This document shows, piece after piece, positions 11,501 through 42,529 of a stretch of 64,000 nucleotides of DNA. A program made the translations under genes and the position numbers. Under the pieces are notes generated by a model. The model saw only the letters and a program-made list of their open reading frames with translations. It did not search any database and had not been told where the DNA came from. Position 1 is the stretch's first letter. Each line of letters begins with the position of its first letter. Source of the stretch: Verrucomicrobiota bacterium (GTDB lineage: Bacteria; Verrucomicrobiota; Verrucomicrobiia; Limisphaerales; JADLHS01); NCBI GenBank assembly GCA_049840435.1, contig JASGKY010000038.1, positions 25,333-89,332 of the forward strand, written 5' to 3'.

Positions 11501-14500
11501 ATAGGCGTCCGCCTCCAATCGCGTCACTGTAGTCAGATTGGTCAACGTGCCAAGATTCGTGGCGGTGGCCACTATGGACAACGTCGCCGCCGTGTTGCCG
11601 CCCATATTTAGTAGATTGCAAACCACCGTTTTCCCAAAGACCTGGACCGAACCTTGTGAGACTGTCGCGGAGACAAACGACACTCCGGGTGAAAGTGCAT
11701 TCGTCACCACTACCCCGGTCGCCGCCAGCGGGCCGATGTTGGTCACGCTGATCGCATACGTCACATTACCGCCAAGGCTGACCGGGTCGGGAGATTCTTG
11801 CACTCCCACCGCAAGATCATTTCGCAATTCCACCGCAAATGGATTGCTTACTCCGACATGTCCGCTGCCATCATCGGCGCGGAGCACCAGATTTGTTGTC
11901 GGCGCCGCAACCGTCACCGCTCCAACCCAAGCCCCGTTGCTGAACGGCCCAGAACTGACGGGTTGAATCGGAACTGCAAGAGCAGCATTTACGGTGTAGC
12001 GCAGATCACACAGAAAAATACTCGTATCACTGTTGTAAAAAGTATCCGGAAACGTATCCCCATTGGCGTAATAATACCCATTTACGATGGAGCCATATGG
12101 AAAGGTGGTGGGCCGGCTCGTACTGTAATAGTATGTGCCGCCATTCACGTAGAACGAAACCCGGTACGTGTTCCCCGCCAGCAGCACCAAAGGTGTGACA
12201 AGTGGCGTTTCAGTCCAGATGCCTTGCGTACCACTGACGTTTTGACTCGCCAACAAGGTGCCGGCATTGCTCCAAATCGAGACTTTCACCCCCGCAACCG
12301 AGCGAACATGTGTAACCGTCAGATTGGTCGCCGGCGTGAACGCGTAGCCCAGCGTGTAGTTGCCCGTGCCCGAATAATCAGGCGTCTGCGTGGTCAAGAG
12401 TGTATTTGTCGCCGTTCCACCACTGCTCGAACTCGTAAAATTGACCGACCCGATGAAGTTGCTGACCGTCGTCTCAAAGGCATCCTTGGCGGTGAGCTTC
12501 ATCGCAATCGGTTCATTGACATATTGCGGCGAGCTCACGGCGTCCCAAGTGAAATGATCCACTCCACGCGTGGTAAACTGCCACACCGGTCCTGGTGTGA
12601 CGCCAGCCTTACGGGCGACAATCCGCCAATAGTAAGTGGTTTGCGGCATCAGCAACGGCAAGGCCCAGGTCGTACTCGTAGTGCTCCCAATCAACTCCGC
12701 CGCGCCTGGTGTAGGCGTGGTACCGAAATAAACATCGTTTGTGATGGTCTCGCCAAGGACGGCGCCGGATTGCCACGCGAGATCGACGGTCTGAATCACA
12801 TTGGTCGCCAAATGCGGTGGAGCGGGGCTAAACGGCTCGAGTGGCGATTCATCATCCGTAATCATCAGGTTGGTCGAGCCAGTAGAAAAACCAGCCGCAC
12901 TAGCAACCACTGTCACGATCTGAGCACTGTCAATGTCAGTATCATCAACGATGGTCAAATTGAAGAGGGCATTGGTCTGTCCGGCGAGAATTGTGACCAC
13001 TGACGGCACAACCAATTCCGTCGCGTCCAAGGACGAAAGCGAAACTGGAAGATTGGTTGTCAATGTGCCAGCAATCCGCACCTGCCCGGCCCCGGCTAAG
13101 ACACCATTGCCTTCGCGGGCTGAGGCTGGCAACAAGACCACTAGATTGGTTGGTTCGTTATCCTGCACGATCACATTGGTAAAGCCTGTAGTCCAATTGG
13201 TGACGGAAGCGGTGATGGTCACCGGTTGCGGACCATCTATCTGTTTGTCATCAACCACGGTCACAGTGAATCCAGCTGAAGTTTGTCCAGCGGCAATAGT
13301 GGCGTAAGGCGAGACCAGCAGTTCGGTCGGATCACTCGCGCTGAGGCTGACTTGGATGTTCGCCGTCGGCGTCGGGCTTACACTCACGCTTCCAACCAAC
13401 ATCGTGCCGCTACCTTCCGTCAAACTCGCGGGTGCAGACACCGAAAGTGTCGCGGTTTCGTTATCCAACACAGTGATGGCAGCATCCGCGCTGGCATAGC
13501 CGCTGGCGGTGGCATGCAACGAGACCGCCTGCCCCCCATCAAGTTCCATATCATTTACAATGGTCAGGTTAAACGCAGCGTTCGTCTGTCCGGCGAGAAC
13601 GGTTACCGTTGCAGGCGTGGTCATTTCAGTTGGATCACTCGAAGTCAGGAGGACTGTCAAGTTGGTGGTTGGTGCCGGAAGCGCCGTTACCAGCCCGCCG
13701 ACTGTTCCATCCCCCTCCGTGGCCAAAGACGGAATGGTAAGTCGCAAAATTGTGGCCGGAGTGGCATCAATGGAAACACTGTCAATCGCCCAGTGGTCGT
13801 AGCCGGAGCCGCTGTGACTTTTTTGCCGCCACTGAAACATGGTTGCCGGGCCACGCGCGTTCACCGGAATAGCCGATGTCACCGCCGTCCAGTTGTAATA
13901 AGCTGTGGTGTCATAGCTGCCAAGAATCACCCACGAGACGCCGGCATTCGTAGAGGCCTCAAGCACGACACCTTCGTCGGGCAAGGCGTCCGCCATTTCC
14001 CAAGGCGAAGAACTGCCATTGGCCAGCCGGATCGAAAATCCGAGCCCGCCGCCACCAGTAGTATCAATGGGAATCGTCCGGGCAAACCGATTGCCGGAAT
14101 CGCCGAACCAGAGCGAATTGGGAGCCGATACCGCCCCCCCGTTATTATTCGCGATCACCGTGCTGCCAACCGTGCCACCAAAGGCCGACCACTGCGAGGC
14201 ATCCAAGCTTGGATCGAAATCATCGGACATGGTCCGCCCCACTACATTCAAGGAAACCGTGCGGGCTTGCACAAAGCTGGTGTTCTGATTGGAAAACCAG
14301 AGTGTGACGGTGTGGGTGCCGAGCGGCAGGCTGTTGGCAGCCGCACCAATCGTCGCTAGCACAGTGTTAGCAGGCCCACCCGGCATCAACACGCCACTGG
14401 TCGGCGTCACGCTCAGCCAAGCTGACGTATAGCTCAAAGACCAGCTCAAGCTAGCATTGCCCGTATTCGTGAGCCCAAATGAAACCGGGTTCGGACTGAA

Positions 14501-16714
14501 CGGACCGCCCACGGGCCCGGCTGCCATCGCCGCCAAGGTGGGGAGAATAGACAGATCATCCGGCACATCGAACGCCTCCACCAATCCAACCGTCGTGGAA
14601 CTGGCCGGCGACGTGGCGCTGAACCCCATCCCGCGCTTTGCAAAAGCCGACCAGAGTTCGGGCAAATTTGCCCCGCCATGATTCACCACATCAGCTTGGA
14701 GAATGGCGTCGCGAGCTTGCAGAAAATTTGGATTGGCCGGCGAGAGATTCATACCGTCGGTAACCAACTGAAGAATCATCTGGTTGCCGACCGCGTGACC
14801 GTATTTCGTGATCAAATTGGCGCGCGCCTCCCACAACGTCGCACACCAGACTTCGCCCTGATTGTGCACTTCATCCGCCGTGCTGCCGATAATCGGGCTG
14901 CGCGGCACACCCGCATGAGCGCTGGCCTGAACCGGATCAATGTCCCGGAACGTCAGGGGATTCTTGGTCAAATCCGTGCAATAGGGATAGCGGCGGATGC
15001 CGTAGTAATAATTCTGCGTCAACCCGCCGAATTGATAGGTCGCATAAGCGCCAGCAGCATAAACGCCATGCACGTCATCTCCGGCTTCACTTAGCAACGT
15101 CAGCCCGTACCAGTCCGACCAGCCCTCGCCCATGCCCCGAGATTGCAACGCGCTTAATCCCACGCCCCCACCGACCCGGCGATTGCTCAGCCCATGCGTG
15201 TATTCATGCAGCACGATCTCATGATCGAAATCGCCATCCCGATCCGGTGTCGACCCGGTAAACACATACATCTGCATCCGGGGCGCACTACCGTCTGAAG
15301 GCGTGGACATGTTGGCGTTGTCCGTCCCGCTGCCATCTTGAGCGTCTGCCTGCAACGCATCGTTACCCAGTCCACCCCGGCCGAAATTGTCATTCTGAAA
15401 ATTCCCCGCCGCCTCCGTGAATCCCAAGGCATACAATTTATCATGCATCCAGTTGCACCAGTAGAACAGATCCGTCACCGCCGCGTTGGGATAGGTGCTC
15501 GGCGCCTGGGTTAGGTTGGCGGTGAAATCAAAGGTGCGAAAAGGCGATCCCTGCGGCCGCGGCAGGTCGGGAGAATTATTGGCATCTTGATCCGTATGGG
15601 CGTCCACGTTGTTGCCCCGGGTCTCGTTGCCCCCATCATCAATCCACCCGCTGGGCGACGCATTTGTGTCCACCGCACTCAACGTGAGCAACACGGACGC
15701 CAGTTCCGGTGGTTGCGTGGTGCAAGGCGTGGAACAACTCGGTGAAAACGGCGCGGGACTGTCGCTGAGATAAACCCGATAGCTGGCGTCGCTGATGTAC
15801 TCCGTTAACCGATGGCGGATGAGCACCTCGCCATCGTCCACATCCACAAGCAGCCGGTACATTTCGCCCCGCGCCCGGCTGGTCAGTTGCACATCCCAGC
15901 ATAACCGCAGCGTGTCCTCCGTAAGCGGCAACCATATTAAACGGGTTTCCGCCGGCTCGGCCAACGGCGGCGCGGTAAAACGCTGTTTCTGCTCAGCCGT
16001 GAACGTCGTCTCGTCGATTGGTTTTACGTTCTCATCCTGCAATGTTTCGCCAAGATTCCGGACCGCCAGCCCAATGGCTTGAGCCGCGGTGACCGTCGGG
16101 ATTTGCCGCGTAGCCACCAAGCTCCGTGCTTTGTCCCCAGCATGCAGGGCCGGAGTCGGAACAAACTGAGAGGCCACGCTGACCAGCTCTCCGCGTTTTG
16201 TCGTATGGGAAGTGAAGACGGCTTCATAAATTGAAATGCCTTCTAGTTCCTGCTCCCACACCACCGTGGTCAACCCATTGTGCGGCGTCACAAACTCCCG
16301 CTTCACACGGGCCTGTTCCAGCGCTTCGGGACCAAAACCAAACAACGTGGCGTGTTCCCGCACGAACGCCTTGGTCGGCAGGTGCGCCACATTAGTCGCA
16401 AAGGTCGCCACAGTTTGCGCGGCCACGCTCCGCCCTTGTCCGTCTGGACCGGTAAGAAATCCGCGGGCGTCTCGAATCCATTTCGCATGTGGCCGCTCGT
16501 TTGCAACAACCCGAACCTCCGGCGTCTGCGTCTTCAGGGTCGCCAATGCCGCGACAGCTTCGCCTTTGACTTCGGTTGTGCCCCCCGTTGACCGGCGATC
16601 CAAGTTAGGCAGCTCTTCATGTGTGGGCGGCAAGATGGCTGGAGTCTGTCTGGCGATCAGACAAAGTAGCCCCATGAGAGTAAATCTGATGGCAGTTCCG
16701 AAAATGGTTTTCAT
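5546..16714 (-). CDS. Giant secreted multidomain protein: N-terminal M36 (fungalysin-type) zinc metalloprotease followed by >3000 aa of Calx-beta, DUF11/CARDB-like, FN3-like and I-set Ig adhesin modules
   Basis: 3722-aa uninterrupted ORF with signal peptide MKTIFGTAIRFTLMGLLCLIA and an FTP/PepSY-like propeptide region. The catalytic core has HEYTHGLSNR (aa 503-512) and GEGWSDWY. Downstream are three tandem Calx-beta-like repeats (aa ~987-1289), FN3-like units ending TTYYWR(I/V)VA, two DUF11-like + Calx-beta modules (VTVNFATANGSA... and VTVNFATVNGTA...) and two I-set Ig domains (NPPVIASQP...YQWRKGG and NPPVIVTQP...YQWQKGN). Confidence 0.9.
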   Translation of the reverse strand: MKTIFGTAIRFTLMGLLCLIARQTPAILPPTHEELPNLDRRSTGGTTEVKGEAVAALATLKTQTPEVRVVANERPHAKWIRDARGFLTGPDGQGRSVAAQTVATFATNVAHLPTKAFVREHATLFGFGPEALEQARVKREFVTPHNGLTTVVWEQELEGISIYEAVFTSHTTKRGELVSVASQFVPTPALHAGDKARSLVATRQIPTVTAAQAIGLAVRNLGETLQDENVKPIDETTFTAEQKQRFTAPPLAEPAETRLIWLPLTEDTLRLCWDVQLTSRARGEMYRLLVDVDDGEVLIRHRLTEYISDASYRVYLSDSPAPFSPSCSTPCTTQPPELASVLLTLSAVDTNASPSGWIDDGGNETRGNNVDAHTDQDANNSPDLPRPQGSPFRTFDFTANLTQAPSTYPNAAVTDLFYWCNWMHDKLYALGFTEAAGNFQNDNFGRGGLGNDALQADAQDGSGTDNANMSTPSDGSAPRMQMYVFTGSTPDRDGDFDHEIVLHEYTHGLSNRRVGGGVGLSALQSRGMGEGWSDWYGLTLLSEAGDDVHGVYAAGAYATYQFGGLTQNYYYGIRRYPYCTDLTKNPLTFRDIDPVQASAHAGVPRSPIIGSTADEVHNQGEVWCATLWEARANLITKYGHAVGNQMILQLVTDGMNLSPANPNFLQARDAILQADVVNHGGANLPELWSAFAKRGMGFSATSPASSTTVGLVEAFDVPDDLSILPTLAAMAAGPVGGPFSPNPVSFGLTNTGNASLSWSLSYTSAWLSVTPTSGVLMPGGPANTVLATIGAAANSLPLGTHTVTLWFSNQNTSFVQARTVSLNVVGRTMSDDFDPSLDASQWSAFGGTVGSTVIANNNGGAVSAPNSLWFGDSGNRFARTIPIDTTGGGGLGFSIRLANGSSSPWEMADALPDEGVVLEASTNAGVSWVILGSYDTTAYYNWTAVTSAIPVNARGPATMFQWRQKSHSGSGYDHWAIDSVSIDATPATILRLTIPSLATEGDGTVGGLVTALPAPTTNLTVLLTSSDPTEMTTPATVTVLAGQTNAAFNLTIVNDMELDGGQAVSLHATASGYASADAAITVLDNETATLSVSAPASLTEGSGTMLVGSVSVSPTPTANIQVSLSASDPTELLVSPYATIAAGQTSAGFTVTVVDDKQIDGPQPVTITASVTNWTTGFTNVIVQDNEPTNLVVLLPASAREGNGVLAGAGQVRIAGTLTTNLPVSLSSLDATELVVPSVVTILAGQTNALFNLTIVDDTDIDSAQIVTVVASAAGFSTGSTNLMITDDESPLEPFSPAPPHLATNVIQTVDLAWQSGAVLGETITNDVYFGTTPTPGAAELIGSTTSTTWALPLLMPQTTYYWRIVARKAGVTPGPVWQFTTRGVDHFTWDAVSSPQYVNEPIAMKLTAKDAFETTVSNFIGSVNFTSSSSGGTATNTLLTTQTPDYSGTGNYTLGYAFTPATNLTVTHVRSVAGVKVSIWSNAGTLLASQNVSGTQGIWTETPLVTPLVLLAGNTYRVSFYVNGGTYYYSTSRPTTFPYGSIVNGYYYANGDTFPDTFYNSDTSIFLCDLRYTVNAALAVPIQPVSSGPFSNGAWVGAVTVAAPTTNLVLRADDGSGHVGVSNPFAVELRNDLAVGVQESPDPVSLGGNVTYAISVTNIGPLAATGVVVTNALSPGVSFVSATVSQGSVQVFGKTVVCNLLNMGGNTAATLSIVATATNLGTLTNLTTVTRLEADAYSLNNSNRTLTSVQVPVIRINDVTLFEGNAGTANAVFTVSVTPAPAAAVTVNFATANGSAISPTDFIATNGVLSFAIGETNQSFVVRTVGDAAYELEESFTVNLSGAVNATLADSQGIGTIRNDDAMPTISIGDVILVEGNSGTTNAAFAVTLSAASGLATTVNYYTENGNAISGSDYTGLSGSLTIPAGVVSSNIVISVSGDLQIEGDEVFYLDLSGAGNATLLKREGFGFIMNDDGLPGDVDRFVWSPIASPQYVNHPFEVTLTALDAFNNPAVNFNGPAFLSAATGEGGTNILGTDTVTYSFPFYTGYATERTQVIYPAGELGGAGRIVALALDVASLPGIELNSWTIRIKHTTLTNYSSYLWESTDWTTVQQTNLNLTTTGWAVFYLATPFDYDGTNSLMLDFSFNNSITYGSGAVRCSARSAARTLYYYTSSFGNPLTWTGSSPSPYATSYTPNLQLIRAPGQIIPLSSVLTGVFTNGVWSGSLTALEVATNVLLRASDANGHVGSSGAFAVGWYDDVGLAVTDSSDPVAVGANLTYMIAVTNSGPSAAAGIVVSNTLPFGATLLSATASQGSVSTNGQLVVGNLGSIAAGAQASMNIIVTPVAIGVLTNIATVSRSGPDNYAGNNVATNTTLVVMPVLSINDTSVTEYAGGDTNLEFTVSLSVASAQVVTVNFATVNGTASAGADYASTNGTLNFAPGQTNQSVFVRVLDDGLAEPNETFSLVLSAPVNAELGKSNGVGIIFDNEGPPEFKITALLTNNSKVVDHDVLTGDDRGGIAISTSQAFVTGDSGTARFAAAGLTGGVSVGLVRDSLCTDLRTETVYLLGNGSTPLTSAGGTVTTLIELNPSTGTPSGVVVTLSQSFTLSSGSSGTGIFSGYGRIVIHNGTTVYDIYLPTGTVTARGAMTRPAWYSSESWAIWGVTEYFEGTLYLTYRESGTQRIVRARVPDGAVTAVATFTSLSDMASFVVSPSRNRWYFHYEGSGQFGGSSETLGYADAQFSFISSNPPVIASQPVSQLVALDGTAMFGVTATGSTPLVYQWRKGGTNLVDGGRISGARTNQLTILNVTTNDMGLYSVAVSNLWGATVSSNATLTVDIPLPPAAPFDPVPTNFASRVSVHTQLAWNDSSNSVTTSASAPVWLVVGPTSSVIAAAATTVGATVLSGSNFTSAVFSGVDLLIFRSASSGYFSPDAATRTKVSDFVAAGGGLYVELGGGYPSLDYSWVPTPGVVSTAGNTPYSDSIGIADATHPIATGVTDASLDNWSYSSHGDFTSNGGLSVVFVNDSTTRPVLLAGSFGSGRVVYSNLDPSVGHGTGSYASELQVFSNACAFATTGIAGGVWFNVYFGTNAAALPLLASNLTQSTCSPGLLAFDTTYYWQVVATNLIGSVTGAVWQFTTALDEVHFASASSSLAESGGAATITVTRENSAHSLSVQYATANGTATAGVDYTAVAGTLQFPVGVLSTNFQVPIINDAVGEGGETVLLSLSLTVSNVLLTAPSNAVLTIVDDDAVTVSLFADPTYVDTGSSTSGEVTNLTAALFAKGCQVQSFTGITPATFSNALLSAKLLVIPELEIGDLAPALSVAAKGIISNFVSGGGNLIICGQSGSRDENFVNQVFGYGVSTAASSSSSLRSGAAVGTAFDGGPATLPENSGTYEWLRSSLPAGSLSIYQDSGALYTTVAMIPRGSGKIVFLAYDWFDAVPRGTQDGGWDEVLRRALLEVLSINASNPPVIVTQPQSLTVTVGGSATFNVLAGGGTPLRYQWQKGNAIITGATNSSYTLSAVQYSNAGNYSVVISNAYGFTNSAAAALTVLPYSSNVSFYAFDTGWYDASGRHDAANENYICGDASDSTDAPYRNWFAFNVPALPGPVVAAQLRIKTYSIVTATGSETFQLHHVSTAVPTLVAGGTGLVSIFNDLADGVVYGSRSFSTSEADQFITMNLNAAFITNLVQAAGQPFAIGGAITSLDTTPFNDEAILGGRSA
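12848..13756 (-). repeat. Three tandem ~100-aa Calx-beta-like domain repeats (protein-level repeat, diverged at DNA level)
   Basis: aa ~987-1289 of the giant ORF. R1 is LTIPSLATEGDGTV...AGQTNAAFNLTIVNDMELDG...ITVLDNE. R2 is SVSAPASLTEGSGT...AGQTSAGFTVTVVDDKQIDG...VIVQDNE. R3 is VVLLPASAREGNGV...AGQTNALFNLTIVDDTDIDS...LMITDDE. Confidence 0.6.
15194..15208 (-). other. Zinc-binding HExxH motif (HEYTH) of the M36 protease domain
   Basis: The reverse complement reads cat gaa tac acg cat (aa 503-507 of the giant ORF), within ...DFDHEIVLHEYTHGLSNRRVGG... Confidence 0.85.
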
Positions 16715-17841: not shown

Positions 17842-19332
17842 TCAGTGCCCTGCGCTGGACAAATTTTGCACCGCACCGACCAATATATTGGGGAAGCACC
17901 CCAGCACGATCACAACGATGGCTAGCACCAAAAGCACTACTTGTGGCAGCAAGGAAGCCTCGGCGATCTTGGCCTTGTTCGGTTTATCCGCCACAACCAC
18001 ATAAATCTGCTTCAGCACCTTGAGGTAGTAGTAGAAGGATACCGCACTCATCGCCACCGCCAGAATCACCAACCAAAGCAGCCCGAGATTCGGCGCTCCA
18101 GTCTTCAACGCCGCCGCAAACAGATAGAACTTTCCGAAGAATCCCGCCAGCGGCGGAATGCCTGCCAGCGACAACAGGAATATCATCATCGCAAATGCCG
18201 CCAGCGGGGCTCGCTTGCTGAAACCGATAAAGCTCGACAGCTTGTCATCTCCGGCGCCGTCCTCGACCAACGCCACCACGCCAAACGCTCCAATCGTCGC
18301 CAGCCCATAGGTCGTCGCGTAATAAACCACGGAAGCGATCGCCTGCTCATCATGCGCCAACACACCGAGCAACATATAACCGGCGTGCGCAATCGCTGAG
18401 TAAGCCAGCAGCCGTTTCACACTGCTTTGTGCGAGCGCGACCAGATTCCCCAGCACCATCGAGAGTGCAGCCAGCAACGCAATGACCGGCGTCCAGCCCC
18501 GCGCAAAATCCCGGAACGCCCCACTGCCTTCCACCCCCGCAAAACCGATCATCATGATCTTGGCGAAGATGAAAAAGCTCGCGAGCTTCGAGCCGGAAGC
18601 GATGAACGCGGCGCTTTGTGACGGTGCGCCTTCATAGGCATCCGGCGCCCACAGATGAAACGGCACCGCCGCCACCTTGAAGCCAAAGCCGATCACCGTC
18701 ATCACAATGGCCACTACCAGCAACGGATCAAGCCCCTTGCCCGCCAGCGCGGCCGCAATCGCGTGCAGATTGGTTGAACCGGACAACCCGTAAATCAAAC
18801 TCAGTCCAAACAACATGAACGCCGCCGCCATGCCGCCGAACAGAAAGTATTTCAGCGCCGCTTCCGCCGATTTGATGTTCCGCTTGTTGAACGCCGTCAG
18901 GATGTAGAGCGACAGGCTCGTCAATTCGAGCGCGATAAAAATCATCAGCACGTCTTCCGCACTCACCAGAAACATCATCCCTACCGTCGCCAGTAAAATC
19001 AGCGCCAGATATTCGCCGGCGTGCGGCGTGAACTTTGCCTCCAACGATACCAGCACCGTGCCGATCGTCAGCCCGAGCAGGCATATCTTCACGATTTGAG
19101 TCAGTGGGCTCACCACCAGCATCCCGTGCAATGCGTCCGCATGCTGCGGATTGATCAGCATCCAGACCATCGCAGCCGTAGATCCTGCAATCGCAACCAG
19201 GCCGCCGACCAGCAGCCGCATCCGCGTTTCCAGCCCGCGCATCGAAGTCAGATCAATCGCCAACACCGCCAGCGCCGTGAGCACGACGATAGTTTCCGGC
19301 ACTGCCAGCTTGAGCAACTCAGCGTAGCTCAT
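17842..19332 (-). CDS. nuoN: NADH-quinone oxidoreductase subunit N
   Basis: Polytopic antiporter-like membrane protein and the last gene of the nuo run. The likely start MSYAELLKLAVPE (ATG 19330-19332) overlaps the upstream stop as ATGA. Motifs include ALELTSLSLYILTAF. Confidence 0.85.
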   Translation of the reverse strand: MSYAELLKLAVPETIVVLTALAVLAIDLTSMRGLETRMRLLVGGLVAIAGSTAAMVWMLINPQHADALHGMLVVSPLTQIVKICLLGLTIGTVLVSLEAKFTPHAGEYLALILLATVGMMFLVSAEDVLMIFIALELTSLSLYILTAFNKRNIKSAEAALKYFLFGGMAAAFMLFGLSLIYGLSGSTNLHAIAAALAGKGLDPLLVVAIVMTVIGFGFKVAAVPFHLWAPDAYEGAPSQSAAFIASGSKLASFFIFAKIMMIGFAGVEGSGAFRDFARGWTPVIALLAALSMVLGNLVALAQSSVKRLLAYSAIAHAGYMLLGVLAHDEQAIASVVYYATTYGLATIGAFGVVALVEDGAGDDKLSSFIGFSKRAPLAAFAMMIFLLSLAGIPPLAGFFGKFYLFAAALKTGAPNLGLLWLVILAVAMSAVSFYYYLKVLKQIYVVVADKPNKAKIAEASLLPQVVLLVLAIVVIVLGCFPNILVGAVQNLSSAGH

Positions 19333-20840
19333 TGCACGCCTCCCTTCTTCACCCAATCAAACAAAGGCGAATTAAAACTCGGAATGATCACATCCAAAAG
19401 AATCCGTGGATACAATCCCACCACCAGCGAGACGGCGATCAGCAGCACCGCCCCGAGGCGCTCCGGGATTGAAATCGGAGCGCCGGTCTCCGACCCGGCG
19501 TGTTCCTCATCATCGTGCGAAGCTGATGTTCCATGCTCCTGTTCTCCGAAGAACGCTTTCTGCATCGCGCGCAGTGTATAGGCCACGCCAATCACGATCC
19601 CGATACCCGTAATCACCGCTAGCGTCGGGAACGCCTGCCACGCGCCAACAATCACCTGCAGCTCCGCGATGAATCCGCTGAAACCCGGCAGCCCCATCGA
19701 GGCGCAACCCGCGATCACAAACGTCACTGCCGCGAACGGCATCGCCTTCACCAGATTCATTCCCTCCAGCGTGGCGAGTTCGCGTGTGTGCGTGCGTTCA
19801 TAAACCATCCGTCCCACCACCGCAAACAGCAGTCCCGCGATGATGCCGTGCGAGAACATCTGCAACACCGCACCGCTCAGCCCGATGGTGTTCAACGTCA
19901 CCAAGCCGAGCATCACGAAGCCCATGTGACTCACGCTCGAATAGCCGATGACGAATTTGAAATCCTTCTGCACCAGTGCCACCAGCGCGCCATACACGAT
20001 GCCAATGACTGCCAGCGCCGCGATCCACATCTTCCAATGTTCCAATCCTTCCGGGAACAACGTCATCGCCACGCGCAGGCAGCCGTAAGCGCCCAATTTC
20101 ATTACGACACCCGCCAGCAGCATCGAAGCAGCCGTCGGCGCGGCCACGTGACCGGTTGGCGCCCACGTGTGAAACGGCCACATACCAGCAAGAATTGCGA
20201 AACCCACGAACACCAATGGGAACGCCCACATCTGAAAGCTGTGCGGAAACGGATACTTCGCCAGTTCCAGCAAGTTCATCGTGTGCCCGCCGGACACCAC
20301 ATACGCCGCGATCAAGCCGATCAGCACCATCGCGCTGCCAATGAACGAATACAGCGCCAGCTTCATCGCGCCGTATTCCTTCCGGGTCGAACCCCAGATC
20401 GCGATGATAAAATACTTCGGCACGATGGCGATTTCGTAGAACACAAATAGCAGGAACAGATCAAAGCTCAGGAACACGCCATACACGCCACCGATGAGGG
20501 CGAGATAAAACGCAAAGAACTCCTTCGCCCGATGTTCGATGTTCCAAGAAAAAAGAATCCCGCCCACCGCCGCCAACCCCGTGAGCAACACGAGCGTCAG
20601 GCTGATGCCATCTGCCGCGAGGTGATATTCCAGCCCCAGTGACGGAATCCACGGCGCTTTGGCGATCGTAAGAATTTGCCCCTTCTCAAAATCGAAAAAG
20701 CCCGCCAGTGCGACCAGCAATCCCGCCACCGCCGTGGTCATGGCAACCTTGCGCGCCGCCGACGCGTTGCCCTTCGGCAGGAGCATCAGCACCAGCACGC
20801 CCAAAAATGAAATGTAAACGGTCCAGGCTAACATGATCAA
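19329..20840 (-). CDS. nuoM: NADH-quinone oxidoreductase subunit M, paralogue 2
   Basis: ~501-503 aa. NuoM-type N-terminal signature APWIPSLGLEYHLAADGISLTLVLLTGL, then 14-TM antiporter-like composition. The start is TTG 20840 or ATG 20834, 2 nt after the HEAT-gene stop. Confidence 0.85.
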   Translation of the reverse strand: MIMLAWTVYISFLGVLVLMLLPKGNASAARKVAMTTAVAGLLVALAGFFDFEKGQILTIAKAPWIPSLGLEYHLAADGISLTLVLLTGLAAVGGILFSWNIEHRAKEFFAFYLALIGGVYGVFLSFDLFLLFVFYEIAIVPKYFIIAIWGSTRKEYGAMKLALYSFIGSAMVLIGLIAAYVVSGGHTMNLLELAKYPFPHSFQMWAFPLVFVGFAILAGMWPFHTWAPTGHVAAPTAASMLLAGVVMKLGAYGCLRVAMTLFPEGLEHWKMWIAALAVIGIVYGALVALVQKDFKFVIGYSSVSHMGFVMLGLVTLNTIGLSGAVLQMFSHGIIAGLLFAVVGRMVYERTHTRELATLEGMNLVKAMPFAAVTFVIAGCASMGLPGFSGFIAELQVIVGAWQAFPTLAVITGIGIVIGVAYTLRAMQKAFFGEQEHGTSASHDDEEHAGSETGAPISIPERLGAVLLIAVSLVVGLYPRILLDVIIPSFNSPLFDWVKKGGVQ

Positions 20841-21935
20841 TTCGTTCGAGTCACCGGTATCAAGCCCCTGATTTCGGCAATCATGGTGTAACGCTCTTGC
20901 GCATTACAGTTCGTCCACAAGTTGCGAACCCGTGTTAAAACCTCTTGCGGAGGTTTTATCAACTCATCGTACTCATTTGGAATGCGAAGTGGCCTAGCCT
21001 TCTCCATTGATAGCAATAGTTGCTGATCGTTTGTAGAAAGTACAATCAAAGATAAGACTGCAGAGACATTGACCTTCCCATCCTGGGTTACCATCCGTTT
21101 TTCTATTTCTGGTATGGCGCCGCGTCCCTGACTCCCCATCAACATGAACCCAAACGCTGCGTTTGCTGCCAAAGAATCGTTTGGTACTCAGAAGCGAACG
21201 ACGCAGTGCTGGCTCAATTAGTTCTGAAGGCTGTCCAATTCTTCCCAATGCCCTCACCGCAAAAGGAGAAATCCGCTCCCAATTTGGATCGTCGAGCGTT
21301 GCGATTATCTGCGGCACCAGCATGACATTTGAAGGACCGAGATGCCTGACTGCTTGCAAAGCATAACTTCGCCACCAGCGATTATCGCTTTGAAGCGCAT
21401 TGCTAAAAATGCTTAGTGAGCCTGGATTCGCAGCCAATGCCTGGAAAACAGAACGCACGCTTACCTCATTGCCATGAATCATGGCCTCAAGCTGTGGCAT
21501 CGCGCTTTTGCCACGCTCTCCCAAGGCAAGAAAGCCCAACACCGCTTGGTTTCCCAATTCCATTCGCTTCTCCAACTTGGCTTCCATGAACTTAAACAGG
21601 AGCTTCGTCGGCCAATCTTGAAGACTGTAGAAGGTTCGTTCTGCCTTCAGAGCAGACTTCAAGCGGGCAATCAAAAACGGCACAGCAGGTTCACCTATAC
21701 TCTTAACAGCGCTGGCAGCTTCGCTATCCAGCACAGGATTGAGATCAACCACGTCAAACCGTCCAGTATTCAGTTTCGCCAACCAAGTTGAAAGCGCCTT
21801 CCCTTCAAAATGCGGCTCGCGAGGAGTTGAAAACCACAACGACGCGCCAAAAACCACCACGCACACAACCACGATCATCCCCCACAGTTTCAACTGTGAA
21901 TGTCTTCGCAATAGGCTTTGTTTATCTTGGGACAT
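20837..21935 (-). pseudogene. Membrane-anchored HEAT/armadillo-repeat protein embedded in the nuo operon (one frame break as assembled)
   Basis: ORFs 20994-21935 and 20837-21172 join near 21170-21185 (...ALRRSLLSTK... then ...AANAAFGFMLMGSQGRGAIPEIEKRM...). 1099 nt implies one extra nt, giving ~365 aa. There is an N-terminal TM helix (LKLWGMIVVVCVVVFGASLWF) and HEAT-like repeats (LVPQIIATLDDPNWERISPFAVRALGRIGQP). GC is clearly lower than in the flanks. Confidence 0.7.
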
Positions 21936-21940
21936 CAGAA

Positions 21941-23488
21941 CTAAAACTTCAGTTGCTCCACCATCCGCACCGCGGTCGAATTAATCACGTCCAACACGAG
22001 GCGCGGGTAGAGGCCGAGCACGAACATCAGCGCGATGGGCACACCCACCAGCACGCGCTCGCGCAATGTCAGGTCGGGCAGCTTTGCCCACTTTTCATTC
22101 AGCGGCCCGGCAAAGACGCGTTGGATGATCGTCAGCAGGAAAATCGCCGTGACCAGAATCCCGATCACCGATAACACCGCCGCCCACGGCGTCAGCGGGA
22201 ACACCCCCTTAAAAATCAAGAATTCACCAACGAAACCATTCAAGCCCGGCAGCCCCAGCGACGAGAACAGCGCAATGCCCATGAGCCCACAGAAAACGGG
22301 AATGGTCTTTCGCAGTCCGCCAAAGTCGTTCAGCCCGCGAATGCCACCCGTGCGTTGCTCGATGAAGCTCACAAACATAAACAGCGTTGCCGCTGTGAGG
22401 CCGTGATTGAACATCTGGAGGAATACGCCGTTGAGCGCTGCAGCTTTCTCCGTAGCGAACTCGGGTGCGTTCGTGAACTTCGCCACCGCGAACACGGCCA
22501 GCAAACAGTAGCCAAGATGGTTGATGGACGAATACGCCAGGATGCGCTTCAAGTCGCGCTGCGCGAACGCGGCGCACGCCGAGAATACAATCGTGATGAC
22601 CGCCAGCCACAGCAACGGCGTCAGCACCCAGTTGATCTGTTGCGGAAAGATCGGCAGCAGGATGCGCAGGAAACCATACACGCCCATCTTCGACATCACG
22701 CCCGTGAGCAGCATCGTCACCGGCGACGGCGCTTCGGAATACGTCGCAGGCAACCACGTGTGAAACGGCAGCAACGGCACTTTCACCGCGAAGCCCAATA
22801 GCACGCCACCAAAAATGATCAATGCGAGCGGCTTCGTGTTCAAATCATACCAACCAAGCTTTGCGGAGAGTGCGGTGGCAAGCGAACTGTCTTTGCCCAT
22901 CGCAGCCAGTTCGATGAAATCCATTTTGCCGGTCGCGAGAAAGATGGCAAGGAACGCCAACAGCATTGCCACGCTACCGACCATCGTATAGACGAAGAAT
23001 TGCGTCGCCGCCGGGCCGCGATTCATCCCGCCCCAGAGCCGGACGAGGAAGAAAGCCGGAATCAGGCTCAGTTCCCAAAAGATGAACCAATGGAAAAAGT
23101 TCAACGCCGTAAACGTGCCGATGAGTCCCGCCTGCAGGAATAGAACCAGTCCGTGGTAGAGTTGCACACGATCCGTGATGCGGTCCGAAACCAGTAACGC
23201 CATCGGCGTAATGATGCTCGCCAGCAACACCATCAGCAGGCTCAGCCCATCCACGCCGACGAAATACTGCACGCCGAGGGCCGGAATCCAATCAGCGCGC
23301 TCAACAAACTGCAGCGCGCCGCTCGACGCATCAAACGATCGCCATAATCCGAACGCCAACGCCAAGGAAAGGAAACTGAATCCAAGCGCCATGCGTCGCA
23401 CCATTTGCTTATCCTGTAATCCGACGACAATGATGCCGCCAACAATTGGCAACAGCGTAAGAAGCGTGAGGATGGCCAACCCGTTCAC
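21941..23488 (-). CDS. nuoM: NADH-quinone oxidoreductase subunit M, paralogue 1
   Basis: 515 aa. NuoM signature ADWIPALGVQYFVGVDGLSLLMVLLASI. The start overlaps the nuoL stop (ATGA). Confidence 0.88.
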   Translation of the reverse strand: MNGLAILTLLTLLPIVGGIIVVGLQDKQMVRRMALGFSFLSLALAFGLWRSFDASSGALQFVERADWIPALGVQYFVGVDGLSLLMVLLASIITPMALLVSDRITDRVQLYHGLVLFLQAGLIGTFTALNFFHWFIFWELSLIPAFFLVRLWGGMNRGPAATQFFVYTMVGSVAMLLAFLAIFLATGKMDFIELAAMGKDSSLATALSAKLGWYDLNTKPLALIIFGGVLLGFAVKVPLLPFHTWLPATYSEAPSPVTMLLTGVMSKMGVYGFLRILLPIFPQQINWVLTPLLWLAVITIVFSACAAFAQRDLKRILAYSSINHLGYCLLAVFAVAKFTNAPEFATEKAAALNGVFLQMFNHGLTAATLFMFVSFIEQRTGGIRGLNDFGGLRKTIPVFCGLMGIALFSSLGLPGLNGFVGEFLIFKGVFPLTPWAAVLSVIGILVTAIFLLTIIQRVFAGPLNEKWAKLPDLTLRERVLVGVPIALMFVLGLYPRLVLDVINSTAVRMVEQLKF

Positions 23489-25596
23489 TTGCCACCTCCC
23501 CAGATTAGGAACAACACCAGCACCACCAGCGCGACGCCGATGACGCGAAGATAATTTTGCACGTGCCCATCCTGCAATCGCGACAACAACGAACCGCCCT
23601 TCGACACCCGTTCACAACTCTGGTCAAAGCCAAGGTTGATAACGAATTCGTCAATCGCCCGATTCACCCAGGCAAAGGCCAATGTTACCAAGGAAACCAG
23701 TTTCACTGCCCCACCCCAAATCCATTCATCCAGAAACGCGCACGCCTTTGCCGCCCATGCGTTGAAGCGGATGACGGTCATTTCGTATAGCTCATCAATG
23801 CCGTATTTCCGCGCCAGCCACGTGTGGATGCCGAGCGGCATCTTCTCCAGCACATCTGGTTCATCCGCGCGCTTGCGTTGCACGAAACCATAAAGCCCGA
23901 TTCCCAAACCGCCACCCACCAAAACGACGAGCCCCGAAACCATCATGATCTGGACAACTTCGCGGGTGAAACCTTCCTCGTGGTGCGAACCAAGGAATTC
24001 CTGAAACCACGGCCATGCTGGGGTGCCGATCGCACCGAGCCCGATGGCGCACACTGCGAGAATGACGAGCGGCACAGTCATCGAGCGCGGACTCTCGTGC
24101 GGCTCGTGTTCGCTCTTCAATGCCACCAGCTCAGGGGTTCTGATGTGCTGGGTATCATGCGACACGTGACTGCGATAGTTGCCCCAGAACACCAACGCCA
24201 TCTGTCGCGTCATGTAAAACGCCGTCAGTAACGCGCCCGCCACGCCAAGACAAAACGGAAGGTGCGACACGGACCAACCATGCGCCGCGTGCAGGATGGC
24301 GTCCTTGCTCCAGAACCCGGAGAAGAACAACGGCACGCCCGCCAGCGCCATCATGCCGACGGCATAGGTCAAAAACGTCACCGGCATGTAATTGCGAATC
24401 CCGCCCATCTTCCGGATATCCTGCTCGTGATGGCAGCCGTGAATCACCGAGCCGGCCCCGATGAACAGTAGCGCCTTGAAAAAGGCGTGCGTGATGAGAT
24501 GGAACATTCCCACTGCCACGCCGCCTGTGCCAAGCCCCATCATCATGAAACCAAGTTGCGAACAGGTTGAGTATGCAAGGATGCGTTTGATGTCGTTTTG
24601 CGCGACGGCAATAGACGCGGCAAACACGGCGGTGATGGCACCGATCCAAGTTACAACTTGCAGGGCAACCGAAACGGGCGGCAACGCGCTGTCCCCCATT
24701 AGTCCCTGCCATGTTGATTCAAATATCGGATAAGTTCGCGCCACAAGGAACACGCCCGCCGCCACCATTGTCGCGGCGTGGATGAGCGCGCTGACTGGCG
24801 TCGGGCCTTCCATCGCATCCGGCAACCAGACATGCAGCGGAAACTGCCCGGACTTACCCATCGCACCAATAAAGATCAGAATTCCAATCAAGGTCGAAAC
24901 CGCGAGACCAGCGACCGTAGTCTGCATGATCATCTTAGTGAGCGCGGTTGTTTCCAAGCAGCCCGCGCCGTTGTCATAGAACAGCAGCGTGCCGGTCTCG
25001 TGATACAGCCACATGATGCCGAGGAAGAAAAACACGTCGCCGATGCGCGTGGTGATGAAAGCCTTCTTCGCCGCCGCCGCAGCGCTGGGTTTGTGATACC
25101 AGAAGCCGATCAGCAGATACGACGCGAGGCCGACCAATTCCCAACTCATGAAGAGCATGAGCAGATTGTTGGCAATGACGATGCCCAACATCGCCGCCGC
25201 GAACAGCGACAAGAACGTGAAGAAGCGCGTGAAGCTCTCGTCGTGCGCCATGTAGCCGATGCTGTAGATGAAGATCAACGTGCCAACGAACGTGACCATC
25301 ACGAGCATCACCGCCGTCAACGGATCGAGCACCCAACCGAGTTTAAGCACCCCGGCCTCGCCCGCCGCGAATTGCAGCCAGGCGAAATTGAAAAACTCTT
25401 TCGCACTTTCATGACCGTTGTGGTGGATCGCATGAGCAAAAGCGCACAGCGACAGCAAGAACGCACCGATCATCGAAACGATGGCCAGCGAAGCGGAGGC
25501 TTTGCGAAACCGCTGCGGCAGCAAGGCGCTCACCCCTGCCGCCAGCAACGGCAGCGCAGGAATCAGCCAGAGGTTTTTGACAATCCAAACTTCCAT
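23485..25596 (-). CDS. nuoL: NADH-quinone oxidoreductase subunit L (elongated, 703 aa)
   Basis: NuoL signature SWELVGLASYLLIGFWYHKPSAAAAAKKAFITTRIGD. C-terminal amphipathic (lateral-helix) region and final TM (YLRVIGVALVVLVLFLIW). About 90 aa longer than E. coli NuoL (613 aa). Confidence 0.9.
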   Translation of the reverse strand: MEVWIVKNLWLIPALPLLAAGVSALLPQRFRKASASLAIVSMIGAFLLSLCAFAHAIHHNGHESAKEFFNFAWLQFAAGEAGVLKLGWVLDPLTAVMLVMVTFVGTLIFIYSIGYMAHDESFTRFFTFLSLFAAAMLGIVIANNLLMLFMSWELVGLASYLLIGFWYHKPSAAAAAKKAFITTRIGDVFFFLGIMWLYHETGTLLFYDNGAGCLETTALTKMIMQTTVAGLAVSTLIGILIFIGAMGKSGQFPLHVWLPDAMEGPTPVSALIHAATMVAAGVFLVARTYPIFESTWQGLMGDSALPPVSVALQVVTWIGAITAVFAASIAVAQNDIKRILAYSTCSQLGFMMMGLGTGGVAVGMFHLITHAFFKALLFIGAGSVIHGCHHEQDIRKMGGIRNYMPVTFLTYAVGMMALAGVPLFFSGFWSKDAILHAAHGWSVSHLPFCLGVAGALLTAFYMTRQMALVFWGNYRSHVSHDTQHIRTPELVALKSEHEPHESPRSMTVPLVILAVCAIGLGAIGTPAWPWFQEFLGSHHEEGFTREVVQIMMVSGLVVLVGGGLGIGLYGFVQRKRADEPDVLEKMPLGIHTWLARKYGIDELYEMTVIRFNAWAAKACAFLDEWIWGGAVKLVSLVTLAFAWVNRAIDEFVINLGFDQSCERVSKGGSLLSRLQDGHVQNYLRVIGVALVVLVLFLIWGGGK

Positions 25597-25597
25597 T

Positions 25598-25909
25598 TCA
25601 GCCCTTCAAAGAATTCACTTCATCCACATTCGTGGTCTTGTAATGCCGATAGATCGCAATAATCAGCGCGAGGCCGACGGCGGCTTCGGCCGCGGCAACC
25701 GCGATCGCAAAGATAACAAACATGATTCCGGTGAGCGCTTCGGGATTCGCGCCGTAGCGCCAGAAGGCGATGAAGTTCAGGTTCGCGGCGTTCAACATCA
25801 ACTCAATGCCGATCAGGACGATGATGGCGTTCCGCCGCGTCAATGCCCCCGCCAAGCCGATGGCGAAGAGAAACGCGCTGAGGAGCAGATAGCTGGCGAG
25901 TGGCGTCAT
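25598..25909 (-). CDS. nuoK: NADH-quinone oxidoreductase subunit K
   Basis: 103 aa with 3 TM helices. Motif: [27 protein letters not shown]. Confidence 0.92.
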
Positions 25910-26400
25910 TTCTTTTCCTCCCTCATCGCGATAATCACCGCGCCGATCAGCGCTGCCGTCAACAAAAGCCCGAGCACTTCGAGCGGCAAAACAAATTTTG
26001 TCATCAAGTCCTGGCCGATCTGTTCCACGGTGGCGGACGACGAGGGCGGCAACGCGCGCTTGCTGGCAAAGCTATGATTGATGGCACAGGCCAGGAGCGT
26101 GAACACTGACATGGCGATCGCCGCGCCCCAAAACCAGGATGCGGAGAAGACGGATTTTTCCGGCGCTTCCCCACCTCGGGTGAGCAACACGGCAAATACG
26201 ATCAAGATCGCCACGGCGCCGACATAGACGAGAATTTGGGTGAGGCCCACGAACTGGGCGTCGAGTTGCAGATAGGCGGCGGCGAGCCCGGCAAAGGCCA
26301 TGGCTACCGCCAAGGCGCTGTGCACGAGATTGCGCAGGGTCATCGCTGCCGTGGCTGCGGCGATAATCAAGATGGCGATGATGGCAAAGGAAAACGTCAT
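25906..26400 (-). CDS. nuoJ: NADH-quinone oxidoreductase subunit J
   Basis: ~164 aa. The likely start MTFSFAII (ATG 26398-26400) overlaps the nuoH stop as ATGA. Motif: [40 protein letters not shown]. Confidence 0.88.
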
Positions 26401-27587
26401 GTCAGTCCGCAAAGCGATAGGTGCGTTTGCCCGATGTCTTTGCGTTCAAACTGGGGCTTGCCCAAGAATAAATAGGCGGTAACCAGAAGCGCGCCACTCG
26501 TCAGCCAGCGCGTGAAGCCCGGGCCAGTGAAATGCCAGAGCGCGGCGGCGACCAAATTGATGAGCACCATCGGGATCATAAATTTCCACGCAAAATTCAT
26601 GAGTTGATCCTGGCGCATCCGCGGCAGCGTGCCCCGCGTCCAAATGAACAGGCACATCAGCGCCAGTAGTTTGAGGAAGAACCAGCCCCACGACGGAATA
26701 AAATCCAGCGCGGCGAAGGGCGCATTCCAGCCGCCCAAGAACAGCGTGATGCCCAGCCCACTGATGGCGAACAAGCTCAGGTATTCGGCGAGGAAGAACA
26801 ACGCGAACTTAAAGCCGGAGTATTCGATGAAGTAACCCGCGATGATTTCTGATTCGCCTTCGGGCAGATCGAATGGCGAACGGTTGGCTTCAGCGTTGGC
26901 AGCGATCAGGAACAGCACGAAGCCGACAAAGCCCCACGGGGTAAAAATAAACCAGTCCGGCAAAAATCCGAAGTGTGTGCCCTGCGCCAGCACAATCTTG
27001 GTGAGCGAAAGTGTGCCAGTGATCATCACCACGGAAACCGTCGCCAGAATGAGCGGGATTTCGTAACTGACCATCTGCGCCACGGCGCGCATCGCGCCGA
27101 GAAGCGCATACTTGTTGCGGCTCGACCAACCCGCCATGAAGACCGCGAGTTCCGACGCAGCCCCAACCGCGAAGAAGAACAGCAGTCCCGCATCGAGATC
27201 GAGCACGACCATGTTCCGGCCAATCGGCAACACCGCGTAAACCGTAAACGCAGTCACCACCAAAATCACCGGGGCGAGCAAGTGTACGACTTTGTCGGCG
27301 GCGCGTGGGACGACGTCCTCTTTAATCAACGCCTTGATGCCATCAGCCGCCGGCTGCAAAAAACCGAAAGGCCCGACACGATTCGGACCGTAACGGTTTT
27401 GGATTCGCCCCAACCCTTTGCGCTCCATGATGGTCATGATCGCAAACAAGGCCGGAAACACCGCCAGGATCGGGATCAGAGATAACAGGATGGAAACGAT
27501 CGGCAACCAATTCTCCGGCACAACGCCCTGCAACTGGCCGAGCAGCCAGTGTTTGAGATTTACGAAGATTTGGTCGAGATCAGGCAT
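26397..27587 (-). CDS. nuoH: NADH-quinone oxidoreductase subunit H
   Basis: 396 aa. Motif: MERKGLGRIQNRYGPNRVGPFGFLQPAADGIKALIKEDVVP. Its start overlaps the nuoI stop by 1 nt. Confidence 0.92.
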   Translation of the reverse strand: MPDLDQIFVNLKHWLLGQLQGVVPENWLPIVSILLSLIPILAVFPALFAIMTIMERKGLGRIQNRYGPNRVGPFGFLQPAADGIKALIKEDVVPRAADKVVHLLAPVILVVTAFTVYAVLPIGRNMVVLDLDAGLLFFFAVGAASELAVFMAGWSSRNKYALLGAMRAVAQMVSYEIPLILATVSVVMITGTLSLTKIVLAQGTHFGFLPDWFIFTPWGFVGFVLFLIAANAEANRSPFDLPEGESEIIAGYFIEYSGFKFALFFLAEYLSLFAISGLGITLFLGGWNAPFAALDFIPSWGWFFLKLLALMCLFIWTRGTLPRMRQDQLMNFAWKFMIPMVLINLVAAALWHFTGPGFTRWLTSGALLVTAYLFLGKPQFERKDIGQTHLSLCGLT

Positions 27588-28246
27588 CAGACGGTGGCCG
27601 GTGCTGCGGTTGATTGAGTTGCCGTCGCCGCTTTGGCTTTGGATTCAGCAGCAGCCTTGGCCTTTGCCTCAGCGTCGGCCTTGGCCTTGGCTTGTGCCTT
27701 CGCGATTTCTGCCGCCAGCACGGCATCAGACGCGGCGGCGTCCGTCGGATGGATGGTGCGGTAATGATCGTTGGATTTGGCGAGTTGTTCCTTATGCACC
27801 AGCAGGTCGCTGAAGCGGTTGGTCCGGCTCCATTTGTAATCCGTGTCCATCTTGATGGATTCAAACGGACAGACCTCGGCGCAGATGCCGCAACTCATGC
27901 AGACGGAGAGGTCAATGTCGAACGTCGCCGGATAAAACTGCGCCTGCCCCTTGTAGTCCGGCTTCTTGTCCTTGCTCTTGACGATGTAGATGCACTTGGG
28001 CGGGCATTCCTTCTCGCAAATCTGGCAGGAGACGCAGCGCAGGCCTTTTTGCCAGTCGTCGCCATCATAGACGAGGAAAGGAAACTGCCGGGCGTTCTCG
28101 ATCTGGGGAATCGTTTCCTCCGGGTATTGTACCGTGGTCAAACGCTCAGCACTGACGTAGCTGCCGAGGAAATTCCTCGCCGTCTCCGCCATGCCTTTGA
28201 TGATGCCTGCGCCGAGCATGAAATAAATGTATGGTTTCAACGCCAA
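27587..28246 (-). CDS. nuoI: NADH-quinone oxidoreductase subunit I (2x[4Fe-4S]) with an Ala/Lys-rich C-terminal extension
   Basis: TTVQYPEE plus two CxxCxxCxxxCP motifs (CVSCQICEKECP, CMSCGICAEVCP). 219 aa from a TTG start, so the start is uncertain. The last ~50 aa are low complexity (AKAQAKAKADAEAKAKAAAESKAKAATA). Confidence 0.88.
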   Translation of the reverse strand: MALKPYIYFMLGAGIIKGMAETARNFLGSYVSAERLTTVQYPEETIPQIENARQFPFLVYDGDDWQKGLRCVSCQICEKECPPKCIYIVKSKDKKPDYKGQAQFYPATFDIDLSVCMSCGICAEVCPFESIKMDTDYKWSRTNRFSDLLVHKEQLAKSNDHYRTIHPTDAAASDAVLAAEIAKAQAKAKADAEAKAKAAAESKAKAATATQSTAAPATV

Positions 28247-29410: not shown

Positions 29411-33071
<3,661 letters not shown>

Positions 33072-42512: not shown

Positions 42513-42529
42513 ATGATATTCGCTAGGAG

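Follow-up and report, generated by a model that had tools for sequence, protein, structure and literature searches.

What is a gene for a HEAT-repeat protein doing between the two nuoM genes of a complex I operon? The question is raised by a 64,000-nt stretch of DNA from a Verrucomicrobiota bacterium (contig JASGKY010000038.1 of GenBank assembly GCA_049840435.1, positions 25,333 to 89,332 of the forward strand), referred to here as the window, whose minus strand carries the genes nuoI-H-J-K-L-M-M-N with a HEAT-family gene of ~365 codons (20837..21935, minus strand) as the sole non-nuo member. In a preliminary description, derived from the sequence alone, this gene was considered a candidate for an undescribed accessory or assembly factor of a complex I with two NuoM subunits (2M). 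The reading that we favour, and to which we give about an even chance, is that it is a dispensable, locus-bound cassette at a nuoM1/nuoM2 hotspot, expressed from the nuo transcript. The hotspot itself is a more surprising result than the HEAT gene.

The local layout is compact. The two NuoM-type genes lie in tandem between nuoL and nuoN, and the operon is assigned to the 2M type because both match the NuoM model TIGR01972: nuoM-1 (515 aa, 21941..23488, minus strand) with 472 bits, along with a Pfam Proton_antipo_M match, and nuoM-2 (501 aa from its conserved ATG, 19329..20834, minus strand) with 463 bits. The nuoM-1 TAG (21941-21943) is followed by a 5-nt spacer and the ATG of the HEAT gene (21933-21935), whose TGA (20837-20839) is separated by TC, i.e. 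2 nt, from the nuoM-2 ATG at 20832-20834 (MLAWTVY...) and is overlapped by a TTG at 20838-20840. The MLAWT start of nuoM-2 is conserved in all relatives, and the ATG and N-terminal tail of the HEAT gene are kept in the relatives L009 and L014. Counts of internal promoter and terminator signals at the HEAT gene are within shuffle expectation. The coordinates and the TTG overlap are as preliminarily described, as are the co-oriented, tight packing and the status of the HEAT gene as the only non-nuo gene across nuoI-H-J-K-L-M-M-N.

The same junction was compared in other genomes with NuoM-2 as the probe, 80 loci being fetched from one-genome-per-species contigs. In 64 of the ~88 loci holding both genes, nuoM1 and nuoM2 lie less than 250 nt apart, mostly 1-5 nt, including all Acidobacteriaceae and basal Verrucomicrobia clades; this abutment speaks against the HEAT gene as a general 2M feature. 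The larger gaps all fall within one Verrucomicrobia subclade of the NuoM-2 tree (subdivision 3, Limisphaerales/Pedosphaera-like), to which the window belongs, and where the junction is empty in ~12 lineages, holds a 75-158 nt spacer in 7 and bears cargo in ~22. According to Pfam the cargo comprises an EcoRV endonuclease with a D12 methyltransferase (L017, L093), BsoBI with a methyltransferase (L018), another methyltransferase (L041) and a PIN toxin (L046). Other junctions carry IS200-like Y1 transposases (Y1_Tnp; IS200-like/RAYT) in L022, L031, L034, L036, L040 and L115, the HEAT family in 8 lineages, and four other HEAT genes with a transmembrane (TM) helix, or TM-HEAT genes, in L003 (L003a), L015, L035 and L043. 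Carriers of the HEAT family are interspersed in the NuoM-2 tree with genomes in which the nuoM genes are adjacent and with genomes bearing other cargo.

Close relatives illustrate how variable the site is. The nuoM genes abut in L039 (NuoM-2 93% identical to that of the window) and in L019-L021 (88-91%), L016 (90%) shows an 89-nt spacer only, and L015 and L043 (91-93%) encode a TM-HEAT protein only 25-29% identical to that of the window. Absence from relatives with 88-93% identical NuoM-2 is the outcome that the preliminary description had set in advance as refuting its proposal, and it speaks against the HEAT gene as a standard 2M accessory. From the tight packing, co-transcription and probable translational coupling had been deduced in the preliminary description. 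The EcoRV and BsoBI restriction-modification (R-M) genes at this site are co-oriented and packed as tightly as the HEAT gene, with 1-12 nt spacers or overlaps (in L017, the cargo is separated from the nuoM1 stop by 1 nt and overlaps the nuoM2 start by 7 nt), hence the packing is a property of the site and not of the HEAT gene.

Traces of exchange are preserved in two relatives. The L003 junction (8354-11984) contains a first HEAT gene (HEATa), a remnant ORF, a second HEAT gene (HEATb, encoding P0004) and a transposase-like ORF. Each of these units has a copy of the nuoM1 3' end before it and one of the nuoM2 5' start after it, three copies of either being present in all. In L115 (5960-8921) two copies of each flank surround a HEAT gene and a transposase; in both loci the copies span 46-47 nt of the nuoM1 3' end and 57-95 nt of the nuoM2 5' start. 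The L003 remnant, orf124, is a fusion of the nuoM2 N-terminus with the C-terminus of a P0015-type HEAT protein, and P0015 is the allele of L115, the sister lineage of L003; therefore, a resident allele has been displaced in L003 by an incoming one. Identities to the window are likewise uneven, with 30% for the HEAT protein vs 89% for NuoM-2 in L096, 25% vs 91% in L015 and 59% vs 79% in L003. When the window is compared with L009, the HEAT gene shows a synonymous divergence (dS) of 0.25 and the flanking nuoM genes one of 0.54-0.61; the lower value of the HEAT gene points to a mosaic history.

Composition sets the gene apart from its neighbours. Its GC content is 0.47-0.51, vs 0.55-0.60 in the flanks, and its GC content at third codon positions (GC3), 0.50, is the lowest in the window, where the nuo genes reach 0.73-0.78 (0.74-0.76 for the flanking nuoM genes) and the 33 other genes average 0.69 +/- 0.056 with a minimum of 0.60. 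HEAT orthologues elsewhere show the same GC3 deficit relative to their own flanks, and low GC3 is thus a stable property of the gene and no indication that it arrived very recently. All junction cargo is low in GC3 (0.47-0.68, vs 0.72-0.82 for the flanking nuoM genes). The ratio of non-synonymous to synonymous divergence (dN/dS) is 0.17-0.19 for the HEAT gene and 0.05-0.17 for flanking nuoM segments, which means that relatives carry a functional gene. Purifying selection acts on the family, yet its divergence is far faster than that of NuoM. The foreign composition noted initially is confirmed by GC and GC3. Taken as features of a hotspot, the junction shows differing gene content between conserved flanks across related genomes, a composition that deviates from the flanking core genes in the window and in relatives, and, in L003 and L115, duplicated flank ends at the cassette boundaries.

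Some further observations concern the site and its flanks. Mini-ORFs of 20-48 codons occupy the 75-158 nt spacers between nuoM1 and nuoM2 of L016 (5366-5457), L024, L029, L030, L032, L051, L056, L059 and L083. They start with M(D/N)(T/A)(D/N)(K/R)H... a few nt past the nuoM1 stop and end at or across the nuoM2 ATG, and REP-like palindromes as well as tandem repeats of 6-7 nt are likewise present in the short spacers. The initial mini-ORF codons match those of junction HEAT genes (MNTDKY in P0027, MDANHS in P0015) and of unrelated cargo (MDA...); such shared start codons could reflect a landing pad that has been conserved, or else the scars of deletions, by which coupled translation is maintained. 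The duplicated nuoM2 fragment stops at an identical GC-rich point (GCGGCGGCGCG) in L003 and L115, which hints at a recurrent join by microhomology. NuoM-1 of L003 (6729-8390) bears a ~38-residue insertion (GETNSTLSLSKMSEEVRDGVEPVPPSQAAVKHASPTRNAH) that is absent from the window NuoM-1. Relatives also show a second cargo site, at the nuoK/nuoL junction, with PIN/antitoxin modules in L003 (3185-4634), an Mrr-type restriction endonuclease in L007 (1176-2090) and, in L115 (1625-2253), a gene for an RHH protein and an ORF of 135 aa; in the window nuoK and nuoL abut.

Concerning the protein itself, sequence analysis and a structural model agree on a single-pass, membrane-anchored HEAT alpha-solenoid. 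Pfam HEAT_2 (PF13646) matches residues 179-239 (E=4.7e-7, 30.4 bits vs a cut-off of 27.7), and this best match (21219..21401, minus strand) lies inside the solenoid. Hydropathy and charge analysis locates an N-terminal TM helix at residues 17-35 (LWGMIVVVCVVVFGASLWF; 21831..21887, minus strand). The AlphaFold2 model, based on ten family members, is confident, with a pLDDT of 88.5 and a pTM of 0.81; residues 2-35 are helical, residues 56-69 form a small beta element, and an all-helical solenoid follows after residue 70. The short N-terminus, single hydrophobic helix and HEAT/armadillo-like repeats recognised at the outset are thereby borne out. The top Foldseek matches are alphaRep, designed armadillo proteins and importins, none at E<=0.001, and the PDB sequence profile matches alphaRep and HEAT proteins only. 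The N-flank of the TM helix has a net charge of +4 and the C-flank 0, a polarity shared by all family members and by generic relatives; from this basic N-flank the positive-inside rule predicts an N-in topology, which would place the HEAT domain in the periplasm. A twin-arginine translocation (Tat) signal was rejected, as the twin arginine in the window N-tail is not conserved in P0004 or P0005. The C-terminus carries a family-specific motif, VRNLWTN (20909..20929, minus strand), identified in the junction-family alignment, in which R337 and T341 do not vary and conservation is at least 90% at W340 and N342.

The gene is a conserved coding gene of no described function, and its product belongs to a small, undescribed, junction-specific HEAT family. 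Members were sought in a word index, among 1.84 billion representatives by exhaustive HMM search, and by scanning metagenomes. By identity to the window protein they range from P0001 and P0002 (92% and 83%), P0004 (59%) and P0005 (56%) to the remoter P0015 (38%), P0019 (31%) and P0027 (28-30%), plus two fragments. The exhaustive HMM search returned 20,297 hits, mostly generic HEAT repeats, with only P0015, P0017, P0019, P0026 and P0027 at family level; the word-indexed profile search gave no new family members, and the metagenome scan with the family profile found two further loci only, both of P0004 type. Every member stems from a Verrucomicrobiota metagenome-assembled genome (MAG) or from a metagenome, and the annotations go no further than 'HEAT repeat domain-containing' or 'hypothetical'.

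The family may be compared with generic membrane-anchored HEAT proteins of PVC type (e.g. P0092, P0103, P0153), which show an N-terminal TM helix, an EPxYxGKxLSxWL motif and HEAT_2 repeats. The window protein has in common with them the N-terminal architecture, the HEAT_2 solenoid and the first-repeat motif (EPHFEGKALSTWL in the window). The junction family nevertheless forms its own cluster, with 118-427 bits within it and <=106 bits to the generic proteins, and is distinguished from them by its longer, basic N-tail and by a separate type of C-terminal region that bears the RxxWTN motif. Among the generic members examined none adjoins nuo genes and none has a described function.

If the gene is indeed a cassette, the following mechanism may be envisaged. 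Cassettes would be swapped between strains by recombination, possibly of Campbell type, with the conserved nuoM ends serving as homology arms; inserted cargo would be transcribed by read-through of the nuo operon, and its translation would be coupled stop-to-start, sparing the expression of nuoM2 and nuoN. The HEAT protein would then act as a protein-binding scaffold, probably exposed at the periplasmic side of the inner membrane, and would not be a constitutive part of complex I. Several points weigh against this reading. About half of the lineages with cargo carry TM-HEAT genes, and at least four of these genes (L003a, L015, L035, L043) score nearer to the generic family than to the junction family, which suggests repeated recruitment to the junction. 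No other TM-HEAT gene was found in ~1.2 Mb of DNA around these operons. Chance capture does not readily account for such an enrichment, which hints that co-expression with NuoM is advantageous. All family members with readable context (8 lineages) lie between nuoM1 and nuoM2 in the same orientation, and long retention under purifying selection also fits a role linked to complex I. It should be noted, too, that the scars from which the recombination mechanism is deduced belong to relatives, the window having a single cassette with clean, scar-free junctions, and that the positive-inside rule is the only basis of the periplasmic topology.

These same points lend weight to a version of the initial proposal, to which we give a low but appreciable probability: the product would be an optional, lineage-specific accessory or assembly factor of 2M complex I, lost or swapped at modest cost, whose TM helix packs on the antiporter-like subunits while the periplasmic solenoid stabilises, chaperones or regulates the extended membrane arm. 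The exclusive position of the family in all eight lineages, its dN/dS, the recurrence at the site of TM-HEAT genes of apparently different origin with none elsewhere in the flanks, the stop-start packing with internal terminator signal not above chance and the conserved RxxWTN motif are all favourable to it, and mitochondrial complex I offers a parallel, in that repeat proteins are found among its fast-evolving supernumerary subunits and distal-arm assembly factors. However, the gene is absent from most 2M operons, including those of all Acidobacteriaceae and basal Verrucomicrobia clades, as well as from L039, L016 and L019-21; R-M genes unrelated to respiration show the same tight layout; and conserved synteny is expected by default among genomes this close (NuoM-2 at least 79% identical). 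A stoichiometric, highly expressed subunit would not be expected to have a GC3 of 0.50, vs 0.74-0.78 for nuo genes. In a small sample (11 against 29), no column of NuoM1, NuoM2 or NuoN follows HEAT presence beyond chance (best p=0.003 in ~1000 tests). Neither Pfam, NCBIfam, PDB sequence nor PDB fold searches gave any similarity to a complex I subunit or assembly factor; they returned generic HEAT only, in agreement with the earlier remark that no complex I factor of such architecture is known. Of the candidate accessory factor there remains, then, a conserved gene of undescribed function, and its complex I role as a general feature is not sustained. A mixed scheme, in which periplasm-facing TM-HEAT proteins are recurrently recruited as optional partners or assembly chaperones of the extra antiporter-like subunit in verrucomicrobial 2M complex I and exchanged between strains as cassettes with the nuoM ends for homology arms, appears unlikely to us.

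Quite improbable, in our judgement, is an envelope-conflict protein, e.g. an orphan HEAT-type immunity protein or a defence-related binder, residing in a variable island within the nuo operon. HEAT-repeat immunity proteins (Imm-HEAT) of polymorphic toxin systems are known, including from Verrucomicrobia and Planctomycetes (PMC3482391), and they resemble the window protein as HEAT-repeat binders in variable arrays. The site is shared with R-M and toxin-antitoxin cargo, divergence is fast, distribution is patchy, and L003 stacks two different HEAT genes and the remnant of a third in the manner of a poly-immunity array. Yet no toxin gene lies beside any family member, all of them adjoining nuoM genes or other cassettes, and overall dN/dS stays well below 1. 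The described partners of Imm-HEAT proteins are nucleases, which would need a cytoplasmic immunity protein, whereas the window protein is membrane-anchored and probably periplasmic, and it gave no profile match. Membership of a known defence family was also rejected, PADLOC having returned nothing for the junction family.

Among known systems, the window operon resembles the Nitrospira-type 2M complex I, in which NuoM is present twice (Chadwick et al. 2018, summarised in PMC9040806), in its tandem NuoM genes and its enlarged, 703-aa NuoL. The tandem nuoM arrangement is also found in related Verrucomicrobia and Acidobacteriaceae. The window operon differs in that descriptions of 2M operons, as far as they could be checked, mention no gene between the nuoM copies, an occupied junction being confined to one Verrucomicrobia subclade. 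With defence and mobile-element hotspots the site has in common a fixed position, varying R-M, toxin-antitoxin and transposase cargo, deviant composition and flank duplications at boundaries. Unlike them, it lies inside a respiratory operon between genes normally 1-5 nt apart, its cargo is co-oriented and stop-start packed, about half of its occupants are TM-HEAT genes, and no integrase or recombinase is associated with it. Accessory proteins dedicated to NuoL/NuoM-type subunits do exist elsewhere: mitochondrial DMAC2/ATP5SL is a leucine-rich repeat (LRR) protein of distal-arm assembly, and cyanobacterial CupA/CupS are encoded after ndhF3-ndhD3, next to specialised NuoL/NuoM-type paralogues. 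No sequence or fold similarity was found between these and the window protein; moreover, they act on the cytoplasmic or matrix side, whereas the window protein is predicted to be periplasmic, and they are, as far as is known, conserved wherever their module exists, whereas the HEAT gene is patchy.

A separate question from that of the role of the gene is whether the window copy is intact, since it is split into two ORFs offset by +1 (20994-21935, 313 aa, and 20837-21172). DNA alignment to the intact relatives L009 and L014 (92% and 83% identical as protein) shows 'AGTACCAAACGAT' in the window vs 'AGCA-CGAATGAT' in the relatives, i.e. a single extra base within CCAAA on the minus strand (21180..21184). 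If one of the bases 21180-21184, whichever it is, is deleted, an uninterrupted ORF of 365 aa results that reads ...LLSTNDSLAANAA... like the orthologues, so the break and the repaired length reported previously are accounted for. The 5' part (codons 1 to ~250; 21185..21935, minus strand) is delimited by the ORF at 20994-21935 and its translation, and the 3' part (codons ~252-365 plus the TGA, in the +1 frame; 20837..21179, minus strand) by its translation, which is collinear with P0001, P0002, P0004 and P0005. A programmed +1 ribosomal frameshift, which the conservation of both halves in +1-offset frames might evoke, is to be ruled out, for all orthologues, including those 83-92% identical, are uninterrupted here and relatives simply lack the extra base.

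That the break is real and the window copy a recently inactivated pseudogene, a cassette beginning to decay, is a doubtful alternative. The extra base cuts the product to 313 aa, as in the NCBI annotation (MGC3959478.1), the gene is dispensable in relatives, and the short spacers with mini-ORFs sharing the cassette start resemble deletion scars. Against decay, neither non-synonymous changes nor stop codons are in excess in the 114 codons past the break; the window lineage has 5 synonymous and 4 non-synonymous private changes there, much like the intact relatives. A real break would have to be very recent. Eleven kb away, the gene for pyruvate:ferredoxin oxidoreductase (PFOR; 29411-33032, minus strand) is broken by an apparent 1-nt deletion near 32215-32235 into a POR_N ORF (32205-33032, reading ELTG before the break) and the remainder (29411-32194). 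Because this conserved gene of the same contig is also split by one base, an assembly error in the MAG contig is favoured for the HEAT break, and we consider it clearly more probable than decay.

The rest of the operon is as follows. Its upstream part, nuoI, nuoH, nuoJ and nuoK (25598..28246, minus strand; nuoI at 27587-28246), is recognised by Pfam Fer4, NADHdh, Oxidored_q3 and Oxidored_q2, respectively; nuoL (703 aa, 23485..25596, minus strand) matches NF005141 with 642 bits over residues 8-700 vs model positions 4-612 of 615, and nuoN (17842..19356, minus strand) matches TIGR01770 with 404 bits. The end-to-end match of a 703-aa NuoL to a 615-position model leaves ~90 extra residues, which would fit the lateral-helix extension that 2M enzymes are reported to have. 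The region upstream of nuoI contains a DHO_dh/Dus-like gene (28397-29392, minus strand) and PFOR, and not nuoA-D; nuoE, nuoF and nuoG were not found within the window. In the relative L003, nuoD directly precedes nuoI. The presence of a ferredoxin-producing enzyme, PFOR, beside a 2M membrane-arm operon may be meaningful.

Elsewhere in the window, a giant ORF of 3722 aa (5546-16714, minus strand) begins ~1.1 kb downstream of nuoN and combines M36 fungalysin peptidase, Calx-beta, DUF11, Ig, reelin-like and BACON domains; presumably it encodes a secreted or surface protease-adhesin. Two extracytoplasmic function (ECF) sigma factor genes are located within 41433-43806 and at 36692-37357 (both minus strand). 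After one of them come a gene for a zf-HC2 anti-sigma factor (42530-43198) and an ORF of 359 aa (41433-42512) with no Pfam match.

Regarding the significance of the locus, the 2M enzymes have, to our knowledge, not been characterised biochemically, and were the HEAT protein to be an accessory factor, it would represent a new kind of bacterial complex I accessory, tied to these poorly understood enzymes, and the first HEAT-repeat accessory of any bacterial complex I. If, instead, the gene is a dispensable cassette, the operon of a large respiratory enzyme can host a gene-exchange hotspot at a point where genes normally abut within 1-5 nt, and cargo as unrelated as restriction enzymes can be inserted there with downstream translation preserved. 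For annotation the locus carries a caution, namely that being in the operon and translationally coupled does not imply being part of the complex.

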